Source: Clostridia bacterium (GTDB taxonomy: Bacteria; Bacillota; Clostridia; Christensenellales; UBA1242). From it: 60,440 nucleotides of DNA. Where the stretch lies: positions 1 through 60,440 of the forward strand of contig JAZUCT010000007.1 of assembly GCA_045639255.1 (NCBI GenBank), read 5' to 3'. The notes beneath the pieces are model-generated. The model was not told the origin of the DNA. It was given only the letters and a program-made list of their open reading frames with translations, and did no database searches. This document shows, piece after piece, positions 49,488-50,029 of the stretch (within the stretch, counting starts at the first letter, position 1; each line of letters begins with the position of its first letter). A program made the translations under genes and the position numbers.

Positions 49488-49515
49488 TTGATTTTTTAAA
49501 AAAAGTGTGTTATAA
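49488..49515 (+). promoter_or_regulatory. strong sigma-A promoter candidate (TTGATT-16-TATAAT, TG-extended) upstream of the first tRNA fragment
   Basis: TTGATT at 49488-49493 and TGTTATAAT ending at 49515, about 24 nt upstream of fragment 1. Confidence 0.5.
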
Positions 49516-49538
49516 TGCAAATGCAAATTTACAAAATA

Positions 49539-49578
49539 AGTTCCAATAGCTCAGTTGGATAGAGCGTCCCCCTCCTAA
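49539..49578 (+). pseudogene. orphan tRNA-Arg(CCU) 5' half, fragment 1 (40 nt)
   Basis: GTTCCAA-TA-GCTC-AGTTGGATA-GAGC-G-TCCCC-CTCCTAA-G. It has an acceptor 5' strand, D-arm, anticodon-stem 5' strand and anticodon loop. No complementary 3' half follows. Confidence 0.7.
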
Positions 49579-49661
49579 GTACCGACTTGTACTAAAATAA
49601 ACTTGCTACAATCCCTAAAACACGGACATTTCACAATAACAACAAACTCACACAACCACGA

Positions 49662-49683
49662 ATTGCACCCAAATTGCACCCAA
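49662..49683 (+). repeat. tandem 11-mer ATTGCACCCAA x2
   Basis: Perfect direct duplication in the C-rich, G-poor spacer between the tRNA fragments. Confidence 0.7.
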
Positions 49684-49703
49684 ACCACTAAAAAATAAAT
49701 CAC

Positions 49704-49743
49704 GCAGCCGTAGCTCAGCTGGATAGAGCGATCGCCTCCTAAG
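49704..49743 (+). pseudogene. orphan tRNA-Arg(CCU) 5' half, fragment 2 (40 nt)
   Basis: GCAGCCG-TA-GCTC-AGCTGGATA-GAGC-G-ATCGC-CTCCTAA-G. Similarity to a tRNA ends at the same position as in fragment 1. Confidence 0.7.
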
Positions 49744-49925
49744 GAATGCCCTGACAAAAATAATAACCCTCAAAACCCTTGTAATTACGGCACTTTTACC
49801 ATTATTACAAATTACCAAAATAAAAAACTGACCCCAAATCTGTAAAAAGTTATCAAATTACATTTCTTGCAGTATATTGCATTTGATGACATTTGGTGCT
49901 AAAATAAGCACATAAATTCCCATAT

Positions 49926-50004
49926 GTTCTCGTAGCTCAGCTGGATAGAGCACTGCCCTCCTAAGGCAGGTTTGTCGGTGGTTCGAATCCACTCGGGAAC
50001 ACCA
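49926..50004 (+). tRNA. tRNA-Arg (anticodon CCT), CCA encoded
   Basis: GTTCTCG/CGGGAAC acceptor stem (one G-U pair), D-arm GCTC..GAGC, anticodon stem CTGCC/GGCAG with loop CTCCTAA, and T-arm GGTGG-TTCGAAT-CCACT. By my parse the variable region is 7 nt, longer than the usual 5. Confidence 0.85.
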
Positions 50005-50007
50005 ATT

Positions 50008-50029
50008 GCAGTCTTATGACTGCTTTTTT
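50008..50029 (+). terminator. rho-independent terminator after tRNA-Arg
   Basis: GCAGTC-TTAT-GACTGC followed by TTTTTT. Confidence 0.6.

Follow-up and report, generated by a model that had tools for sequence, protein, structure and literature searches.

Three tRNA-Arg(CCU) units at one locus

The DNA analyzed here, a stretch of 60,440 nucleotides from a Clostridia bacterium (GenBank assembly GCA_045639255.1, contig JAZUCT010000007.1) referred to below as the window, carries an intact tRNA-Arg(CCU) gene behind two orphan 5' halves of such genes, with two tyrosine integrase genes downstream. A preliminary description had taken the intact gene as the resident copy and the arrangement as a mirror image of classical tRNA integration. 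We describe the locus in terms of two mobile elements, E1 and E2, to whose left sides we assign its parts. The features are as follows.

49488 to 49516, + strand: candidate sigma-70 promoter of the original host tRNA-Arg(CCU) gene (TTGATT-17-TATAAT with TG, 10/12 match), function predicted
49540 to 49579, + strand: unit 1, orphaned 5' half (positions 1-39) of a tRNA-Arg(CCU), the outermost of the targets; attL junction of E1
49572 to 49579, + strand: core copy 1, CTCCTAAG, made up of anticodon loop C32-A38 and G39, putative crossover region, with the start of E1 at this core or directly behind it (alignment A4)
49580 to 49703, + strand: spacer of 124 nt at the left end of E1 (45% A, 30% C, 6% G), conserved in E1-type elements
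49662 to 49683, within the E1 left-end spacer: perfect tandem 11-mer, ATTGCACCCAA x2
49704 to 49743, + strand: unit 2, 5' half of E1's replacement tRNA-Arg(CCU), allele GCAGCCG...ATCGC, cut by E2
49736 to 49743, + strand: core copy 2, CTCCTAAG, left boundary of E2 (blastn start against L001; alignment A3)
49744 to 49925, + strand: spacer of 182 nt at the left end of E2, conserved in L001, L002 and L042
49877 to 49905, + strand: candidate promoter of E2, TTGCAT-17-TGCTAAAAT, read from the sequence
49926 to 50004, + strand: intact tRNA-Arg(CCU) carried by E2 (unit 3), the putative replacement gene, with core copy 3 at 49958-49965
50008 to 50023, + strand: terminator-like hairpin plus T-run, 3' of the tRNA

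A reading of positions 49300 to 50300, a pattern search and a repeat finder, which groups the units as one family (D2), all confirmed the earlier account of three co-oriented units, two truncated and one intact. Their starts lie at 49540, 49704 and 49926; unit 1 had been placed at 49539 and its spacer given as 125 nt, whereas the other two starts and the 182 nt of the second spacer needed no change. Each unit opens with an acceptor strand of 7 nt and TA, continues with a D-arm GCTCAG(T/C)TGGATAGAGC and a single nucleotide, and then has an anticodon-stem strand of 5 nt and CTCCTAAG. The pattern TAGCTCAGYTGGATAGAGC-N6-CTCCTAAG matches three times without mismatch (49547, 49711 and 49933; 0.00 expected in 100 shuffles), and all three occurrences of CTCCTAAG in the window (0.36 expected) fall in the units. 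Core-to-core spacing is 164 and 222.

Only unit 3 was called as a tRNA, tRNA-Arg(CCU), by ARAGORN and Rfam (58.2 bits against a cutoff of 29), and it is the one intact copy in the window. The tRNA likeness of units 1 and 2 ends after CTCCTAAG. A permissive Rfam search gave no score for the 40-nt halves, and, a tRNA-Asn gene excepted, the window holds no further copy of a tRNA 3' half or T-arm. With the 3' half of the intact gene, unit 3 pairs at 7/7 acceptor-stem and 5/5 anticodon-stem positions, unit 1 at 5/7 and 3/5, and unit 2 at 4/7 and 2/5. The stem strands themselves match the earlier description. The statement that neither fragment could pair with the present 3' half holds for unit 2 and is weak for unit 1, which the lenient ARAGORN accepts as a tRNA when joined to that half. 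Stem mismatch alone therefore does not rule out that unit 1 and this 3' half belong together; it is the comparative boundaries given below that do.

The promoter candidate described in front of unit 1 was recovered by our scan, which found no + strand terminator-like site between it and 50008, making transcription of the halves from this host promoter plausible. Unit 1 is presumably a remnant of the host's native tRNA-Arg(CCU) gene, and the promoter would now face the orphan and everything downstream of it. Both spacers are C-rich and G-poor (6% G in spacer 1 and 10% in spacer 2, against 16% in the window), as had been reported; that they correspond to the left ends of elements had been missed. 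Compared with L001, L002 and L042, the window carries 10 additional nt (about AAGCACATAA, at about 49906-49916) between the -10 element of the E2 promoter and the tRNA start, resulting in a longer predicted 5' leader of the E2 tRNA.

Boundaries of E1 and E2 in related loci

About 200 related loci were compared, cited here by locus label (L-numbers). Relatives of the integrases adjoin a tRNA-Arg gene in nearly every locus, from the more distant ones to L001 and L002, two Clostridia metagenome-assembled genomes (MAGs) with 98-99% identical copies of integrase 1. In a blastn comparison of the window with L001, homology starts exactly at 49736, runs through spacer 2 and the tRNA (49736-50004) and resumes from 51438 to 58225. 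Alignment A3 covers the E2 left junction in four genomes (window, L001, L002 and L042). Upstream of CTCCTAAG no two of the four are related: the window has the 5' half of an E1-type tRNA (GCAGCCG), L002 a half of the GTGGGTA type, L042 one half of a host tRNA (GACCTCA...) and L001 a non-tRNA sequence. On the downstream side the similarity is close (mean column identity across the entire alignment, 88%). This contrast indicates that E2 begins at the CTCCTAAG of unit 2 and includes the spacer, the promoter and the whole tRNA. The proposed link of the locus to the two-integrase element thus stands, but the intact tRNA belongs to that element and is not a resident gene.

Spacer 1 and unit 2 are 86-89% identical to the region that immediately precedes and includes an intact tRNA-Arg(CCU) in L014, L042, L050 and L100, and the allele of unit 2, with spacer 1 upstream, occurs as an intact tRNA in these four loci and in L003 and L005. 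Seven genomes were aligned at the E1 left junction (A4): seven different tRNA 5' halves precede the first CTCCTAAG, and homology sets in at this core and spans the spacer (125 nt) as well as the tRNA 5' half. At the second CTCCTAAG the window leaves the others, which go on into a tRNA 3' half. Judged by this alignment, E1 is a second element type with a left end running from the CTCCTAAG of unit 1 through unit 2. The homology breakpoints fall exactly at CTCCTAAG, in agreement with the earlier suggestion that the halves are truncated at a tyrosine-integrase crossover in the anticodon loop. The perfect 11-mer repeat, rightly located before at 49662-49683, is specific to the window; imperfect versions (TTGCACCCAAA/GTGCACCAAAA in relatives) are present in all E1 left ends, a conservation that suggests function, a recombinase arm site being a candidate role only.

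The two halves of the element-borne tRNA covary. The window has T28:A42 where L001 and L002 have C28:G42, a compensatory change, and L007 has GCACCCT/AGGGTGC where L006 has GCACCTT/AAGGTGC, as expected of a functional gene travelling with the element. The 40-mer of unit 1 is present, identical, in metagenome contig L218, beside host-like genes and followed by a different family member. That the same 40-mer is occupied elsewhere marks unit 1 as a genuine allele serving as a target. The unit-1 junction had no exact match in GTDB genomes, and blastn of 49400-50100 against phage and plasmid collections gave generic tRNA-Arg matches only.

Three direct repeats in one orientation within less than 500 bp could also have arisen by local duplication, through slippage or unequal crossing-over, of a 5' tRNA part with its promoter, followed by divergence of the copies. 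We consider this extremely unlikely. The loops and D-arm are identical, yet both stems differ at most positions, all three units end at one nucleotide, and their flanks are mutually unrelated; each unit with its flank has its own homologues elsewhere, next to different partners. The fragments are thus, as had been argued from their stem strands, different tRNA-Arg(CCU) alleles and not decayed copies.

Metagenome assemblies often break at tRNA genes, which act as repeats, and many of the related contigs end there. A mis-join of metagenomic reads from several tRNA-Arg(CCU) genes could in principle have produced the three units. The same E1/E2 junction, with three units, is found in the independent MAG L002, and positions 49611-50006 are spanned by a contig (X5 record 25) of a different gut metagenome run; the junctions recur in L042/L164 and at dozens of analogous loci, some of them in cultured isolates (Pumilibacter, L181 and L184). 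Recurrence in independent assemblies argues against an assembly artefact, an alternative that had been left standing in the preliminary description and to which we attach virtually no weight.

Right ends and nested arrangements

At attL, in the window as in its relatives, a tRNA 5' half gives way to non-tRNA sequence; at attR, seen in the relatives, non-tRNA sequence leads into a 3' half. The repeat that the element ends have in common measures only 7-8 bp. The right end of E2 was located on the L001 contig, where non-tRNA sequence (...TTGAGTGAATAAAATTACCCAGTCAGGGCAAG) is followed by the core CTCCTAA and by a tRNA 3' half (GGAAT...AGGGAACACCA), giving E2 a length of 17.6 kb from core to core in that contig. 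In another genome, L077, a homologous E2 right end (79-87% identity) is fused at CTCCTAAG to an E1-type tRNA 3' half. Joined in silico, this 3' half and unit 2 of the window form a tRNA-Arg. The L077 junction is the one that insertion of E2 into the tRNA of E1 predicts past the window end.

Both orders of insertion were found among the relatives. E2 lies in the tRNA of E1 in the window and in L002, E1 lies in the tRNA of E2 in L042/L164 and L080/L149, and E1 lies in the tRNA of another E1 in L067/L150, L115/L147 and L171. L143 reads host 5' half, E1 left end, E1 tRNA 5' half and a third element with an intact tRNA, followed 7.5 kb further on by the matching 3' half of the E1 tRNA and then the E1 integrase; the attR-side arrangement of L138, L165, L167 and L095 is like that of L143.

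From the window itself the walk past 60440 proceeded via the restriction endonuclease and DUF8370/8371 genes. L128 extends the homology by 5.3 kb without reaching the end of E2, the next-closest homologues lying in unrelated serine-recombinase elements. No further CTCCTAAG follows core copy 3 up to 60440, nor in the additional 5.3 kb of L128.

E1 right ends (L163, L198, L199, L106 and L216) carry a conserved outward-facing TTGAGA-17-TATAAT about 55 nt before the core. Within an integrated element this promoter would read into the orphan 3' half and host DNA. The stretch about 110 nt before the attR core of these right ends holds, with the promoter, repeated GAAAAG(A/T)TA motifs. A scan of the window detected no promoter-like site in the E1 left end. 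At L001, a remnant resembling an E1 right end follows directly on host HAD and tyrosyl-tRNA synthetase genes and has a perfect TTGACA-17-TATAAT promoter with a 36-nt leader, suggesting a tandem insertion or a relic.

A family of tRNA-Arg-associated integrases

Scanning GTDB species representatives with the integrase alignment gave 258 relatives; 79 loci, 77 of them new, were analyzed with 10-kb flanks. In 65 of the 77 new loci an intact tRNA-Arg gene converges on the integrase, whose stop is between about 50 nt and a few kb away. Most of these tRNAs are CCU; ACG and CCG have clades of their own. Of the new loci, 50 have one or more orphan 5' halves stacked upstream of the intact gene, and 10 have at least two. 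Core-to-core spacing in the family ranges from 155 to 339 nt (mode 165-166). In the ACG clade (L174, L175, L211, L006 and L007) the core is CTACGGA, and in the CCG clade (L180-L185, L187, L189, L192, L193, L201, L202 and L204) CTCCGAC, in either case the anticodon loop only; these clades, whose integrases stand at 31-40% identity, use the same element architecture. The only sequence common to all partners is the anticodon loop: CTCCTAA (+G), CTACGGA or CTCCGAC. L196 has a tRNA-Glu(CTC) at the equivalent position. Carriers are MAGs of gut Clostridia, Bacilli and Tenericutes, along with cultured isolates including Pumilibacter intestinalis CLA-AA-M10 (L184), which has a 12.3-kb element with matched halves, and P. 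muris (L181). A scan for the E1-type 3' half proved too unspecific, as this allele is native in many bacteria, although there were many informative loci among the matches listed.

In 11 loci the two halves of one tRNA, complementary in acceptor and anticodon stems, flank an insert of 6.6-17.5 kb, with the orphan 3' half downstream, beyond the integrase. Most of these inserts are single elements; two are nested or composite. Joining the halves in silico gave an ARAGORN tRNA-Arg in 11/11 cases. In L206, an 11.4-kb E1 element with an integrase, an HNH nuclease and two N6/N4 methylases lies between host oxidoreductase genes.

The flanked inserts also bear on the mirror-image interpretation of the preliminary description, in which small elements carrying a promoter and a 5' tRNA part rebuild the gene upstream, the downstream integrases being unrelated or acting in trans. 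Recombination with the 5'-distal part of a tRNA gene is documented, though rare (PMC6563490), and here it is indeed 5' and not 3' halves that are duplicated, each behind a promoter-like region; the chimera of unit 1 with the resident 3' half, accepted by ARAGORN, would fit as well. Such 'elements', however, would measure just 164 and 222 bp. Moreover, the window, L001 and L002 differ in their upstream halves but are homologous through the tRNA 3' half and in further blocks that cover integrases and primase. That 3' half covaries with the 5' half of unit 3 and is unable to pair with unit 2, and each orphan of the 11 relatives has its matching 3' half downstream, past the integrase, at a distance of 6.6-17.5 kb. 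The observation that the arrangement is not what classical tRNA integration leaves was correct. Its explanation as a mirror image is very improbable; we favor instead elements that do not rebuild their target, carry a whole tRNA and have inserted one inside another.

Given that orphans are common in the family (50 of 67 loci), they might be kept for a function, either as tRNA-half RNAs (regulators, anticodon-nuclease decoys or split-tRNA pieces) or as DNA at which integrases land or which confers immunity to them. Unit 1 is preceded by a strong promoter with no terminator before 50008, and the tandem or rearranged arrays of L001, L106 and L165 indicate reuse of the cores at orphan junctions. 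On the other hand, the orphan sequences vary by host, corresponding to whichever allele was hit, and some are decaying: in L106, 2 nt are gone, and the copy of L005 has become GCGCCTAAG. For split-tRNA assembly a complementary leader or partner is lacking, and formation as an integration by-product explains their presence fully. Selection for a function thus seems improbable, and the split-tRNA or decoy idea was rejected as a primary explanation, the orphans being host-specific and decaying.

Two further groups of loci were encountered. Orphan tRNA-Arg(CCU) 5' halves spaced 83-115 nt apart occur in L025, L049, L059, L079, L083 and L093 (Oscillospiraceae and Clostridiales), three in a row in L079 and as a complete 3.5-kb case with matching halves in L059; these loci probably represent a different element family with the same strategy. 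L019 and L028, on one Gammaproteobacteria contig, provide a classical contrast, an intact tRNA-Arg(CCU) with an orphan 3' half of the same allele about 30 kb away.

A model for the locus

We conclude that the locus is very probably the left side of two nested site-specific integrative islands of a family that replaces tRNA-Arg(CCU). The tyrosine integrases of this family would recombine within the 7-nt anticodon loop of tRNA-Arg(CCU), the shared core being CTCCTAA+G. Integration would split the target into two dead pieces, the 5' half at attL and the 3' half at attR; no rebuilding fragment would be carried, the element bringing instead a complete tRNA-Arg(CCU) 125-230 nt inside its left end. 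E1 would have entered the host gene first, leaving unit 1 behind the host promoter and placing its own tRNA 164 nt downstream. E2 (at least 16 kb here) would then have used the E1 tRNA as attB, leaving unit 2, with unit 3, the tRNA of E2, 222 nt further on. The window would thus read host promoter, host 5' half, then, opening E1, its left end and tRNA 5' half, and, opening E2 within it, the left end, tRNA and genes of E2. Past the window one would expect an E2 right end (like TTGAGTGAATAAAAT...), CTCCTAAG, the 3' half of the E1 tRNA (GCGAT...CGG(C/T)TGC), the rest of E1 if it survives, CTCCTAAG again and the host 3' half (GGGGA...TTGGAAC, ending TTGGAACNCCA).

In an excised E1 circle, the element tRNA would be driven by the E1 right-end promoter across attP; after integration, the captured promoter of the target would take over, whereas E2 has a candidate promoter of its own. 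Any intact tRNA-Arg(CCU), including that of a resident element, would be a valid attB, giving rise to stacks. The repeated cores may also be substrates for later deletions or tandem insertions, as the rearranged arrays of L001, L106 and L165 suggest.

At the level of sequence comparison, the boundaries, the alleles, the complete flanked elements and both types of E2-in-E1 junction are established. Tyrosine integrases exchange strands across a 6-8-bp overlap, and classical tRNA and tmRNA islands are said, after Williams in 2002, to cross over in the anticodon loop. By analogy with both, the loop would be the overlap region and these integrases the catalysts. The imported gene would functionally replace the broken one, and the host possibly depends on it; the insertions probably occurred in the order E1, then E2, and read-through transcription from the captured host promoter is plausible.

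Several points weigh against this interpretation. The window stops 10.4 kb after the tRNA, before the right end of E2, such that its own attR sites and the rest of E1 lie beyond view, and E1 may survive here only as a 164-bp left end. An exact-pattern scan for the predicted attR retrieved nothing from the contig of L002, and no empty site was found for this host. A search of sequencing runs returned gut-metagenome contigs only, sharing at most 29% of words, and neither RNA runs nor raw reads. The left flank of E2 in L001 is the E1-right-end-like remnant (13594-13760, - strand) and not a tRNA 5' half, implying that arrays rearrange in ways that simple nesting does not predict. To these is added the tRNA call for unit 1 joined to the resident 3' half.

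Gene content of E2 and surroundings of the locus

The genes around and downstream of the three units are listed below.

45125 to 46954: BipA/TypA, a chromosomal gene upstream of the units
50171 to 51446: variable E2 cargo between the tRNA and the integrases, with a 289-aa open reading frame (ORF; +, 50171-51040) and a 117-aa ORF (-, 51093-51446)
51459 to 52895, - strand: tyrosine integrase 1, 478 aa, convergent with the tRNA (Pfam Phage_integrase, 1e-19)
52828 to 54249, - strand: tyrosine integrase 2, 473 aa, a paralogue of integrase 1 with 42% identity (Pfam Phage_integrase)
54261 to 57208, - strand: block starting with a 78-aa ORF
55017 to 57023, - strand: primase/helicase with DnaG zinc finger, Toprim and AAA_25
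57026 to 57208, - strand: 60-aa HTH_17 Xis/AlpA-like protein
57400 to 60440, - strand: 260-aa ORF, then restriction-modification (RM) cargo
58254 to 59510, - strand: 418-aa homologue of proteins named restriction endonuclease
Up to 60440, - strand: N6 methyltransferase, start only, E2 continuing past the window end

The catalytic residues R, HxxR, H and Y are invariant in integrase alignment A2, and both E2 integrases keep all of them. Each is 43-47% identical to the integrase of E1, integrase 2 being 46-47% identical to the single integrase of E1-type elements. The two ORFs overlap by 68 nt (52828-52895), whereas E1-type relatives have one integrase only; both E2 integrases are 96-99% conserved in L001 and L002. 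Tn554-like transposons combine two dissimilar recombinases, TnpA and TnpB, with a small TnpC, and use a non-tRNA att554-type site without a target repeat. A Tn554-like reading of E2, a superficial likeness, was rejected, as its integrases are paralogous (42%), its target is an anticodon loop and its 117-aa ORF has no TnpC match.

Neither the 289-aa nor the 117-aa cargo ORF has a family match, and L001 and L002 carry other DNA in this region. In L128, N6 and C5 methylases adjoin the endonuclease homologue. The endonuclease and methylase module of E2 (58254-60440) recurs at 78% protein identity and about 77% at the DNA level in L129-L131, where it adjoins large serine recombinases of unrelated elements; RM cassettes are evidently swapped between different kinds of mobile element. 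About 560 nt between the endonuclease and methylase genes of the window (59521-60083, with a 189-aa ORF) are lacking in L128. No capsid, tail or lysis families were detected in the parts of E2 seen or in the complete 11.4-kb E1 element of L206, and IMG/VR contained no relatives of the integrases. E1 and E2 thus appear not to be prophages; a satellite or a mobilisable island is possible.

Elsewhere in the window, two adjacent giant ORFs (13389-27419, -, 4676 aa; 27525-36827, -, 3100 aa) are presumably giant surface proteins of the host, the former having BspA-type leucine-rich repeats near its C-terminus and the latter no Pfam match. The only other tRNA gene, tRNA-Asn(GUU) (6164-6238, -), has no orphan halves nearby.

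Significance

The strategy of breaking an essential tRNA gene and bringing one's own is hereby extended from a few actinobacteriophages to abundant, non-phage, RM-carrying islands of the gut microbiota. It accounts for orphan tRNA 5' halves, which neither tRNA annotators nor island finders expect; Islander and TIGER search for a restored gene and a 3' fragment. As a replacement tRNA can become the target of the next element, there would be a simple route to nested arrays and to horizontal turnover of tRNA alleles, with host dependence on the element as a possible consequence. An integrase needing only a 7-8-bp core in a universally conserved loop might serve as a broad-host-range integration tool, much as plasmids with Fionnbharth attP-int-tRNA have been proposed for mycobacteria.

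On a broader scale, the elements could form a large and as yet undescribed family of defence islands in gut Firmicutes, specific for tRNA-Arg and replacing it, with cross-lineage spread, promoter capture, competition or hitch-hiking through mutual insertion in Russian-doll arrays, stepwise allele replacement and lock-in after decay of the orphans, a view for which we see the case as evenly balanced. Requiring only the conserved 7-nt loop and bringing a whole tRNA, such elements would be free of the stems of their hosts and able to cross between Clostridia, Bacilli and Tenericutes. The literature that we searched contained no description of an Arg-specific family or of such nesting, which is not proof of absence.

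Comparison with known systems

Like classical islands and prophages (Islander, PMC4383910), the islands described here combine a tyrosine integrase beside the target tRNA with a crossover, here putative, in the anticodon loop and with tandem arrays that arise when the site is used again. A classical island brings along the 3' part of the gene, by which a chimeric functional tRNA is restored at attL, and its far end is marked by the 3' fragment as a long direct repeat. Here, by contrast, 8 bp are repeated, both halves are orphaned and the whole gene is imported; neither junction regenerates the target, and the intact gene lies 125-230 nt inside the element. Small islands that consist of an integrase and RM genes as main cargo and reside at tRNA genes have been described as well (Furuta et al. 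2010, PMC2853133). Those units have long direct repeats of tRNA sequence, the mark of the classical restoration mode, which the islands described here lack.

Integration of an element with reversed target orientation is likewise reported to be marked by a duplicated 5' tRNA sequence (Zhao and Williams, J Bacteriol 2002, PMC139527, cited in PMC6563490). The attP of that element reportedly carries the promoter and the 5' part, from which the gene is rebuilt with the 3' part of the host, whereas here nothing is rebuilt and the intact gene is wholly element-borne. Its 3' half moves with the element and covaries with the 5' half there, and in relatives the host 3' half lies at the far end.

The closest parallel is tRNA-dependent lysogeny, described for actinobacteriophages (Fionnbharth/K4, cluster L, Gaia and Gordonia CQ2/DL; Guerrero-Bustamante and Hatfull, mBio 2024, PMC10865867). 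These phages have a tyrosine integrase and an 8-17-bp core, reconstruct no tRNA and require a phage tRNA of the same isotype for viable lysogens; wider occurrence was anticipated and prophage Lj965 mentioned. The likenesses are extensive. In both cases an element tRNA with matching anticodon and its own expression signals replaces the broken gene, as we propose for E1 and E2, and the element encodes a tyrosine-family integrase, recognized here by Pfam and the invariant R...HxxR...H...Y. In both, attB overlaps a tRNA gene, the 5' halves here ending in the loop and both halves flanking the elements of relatives, and a short core, here CTCCTAA(G), is used without rebuilding a functional tRNA, as seen here at attL and at the attR of relatives. 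Isotype and anticodon match too, with tRNA-Arg(CCU) inside E2 and likewise in the ACG and CCG clades. Prophage Lj965 of Lactobacillus johnsonii is cited as a likely case outside Actinobacteria (PMC10865867) and, by that description, shares with the islands a Firmicute host, a tRNA that is not rebuilt and a cognate tRNA on the element. Unlike them it is a prophage, and no reports of nesting or of an Arg-specific integrase family were found for it.

Differences from the actinobacteriophage systems concern targets, content and arrangement. The phages belong to Actinobacteria and target tRNA-Lys, Ile2 and Leu, whereas the islands target tRNA-Arg only (CCU, ACG and CCG) and, in the parts seen, have no phage structural genes. 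Fionnbharth has its tRNA gene elsewhere in the genome, whereas here the replacement tRNA sits beside the core and would land behind the captured host promoter. The tRNA requirement was demonstrated experimentally in the phages and is deduced for the islands. Unlike the phages, these elements appear to use each other's replacement tRNA as attB, giving rise to stacks of orphan halves. The strategy itself is already known, as tRNA-dependent lysogeny, from the Hatfull laboratory in 2024; what is new here relative to that work (PMC10865867) is its occurrence in non-phage islands, an Arg-specific integrase family (CCU, ACG and CCG), reciprocal nesting, and a replacement gene abutting the core.

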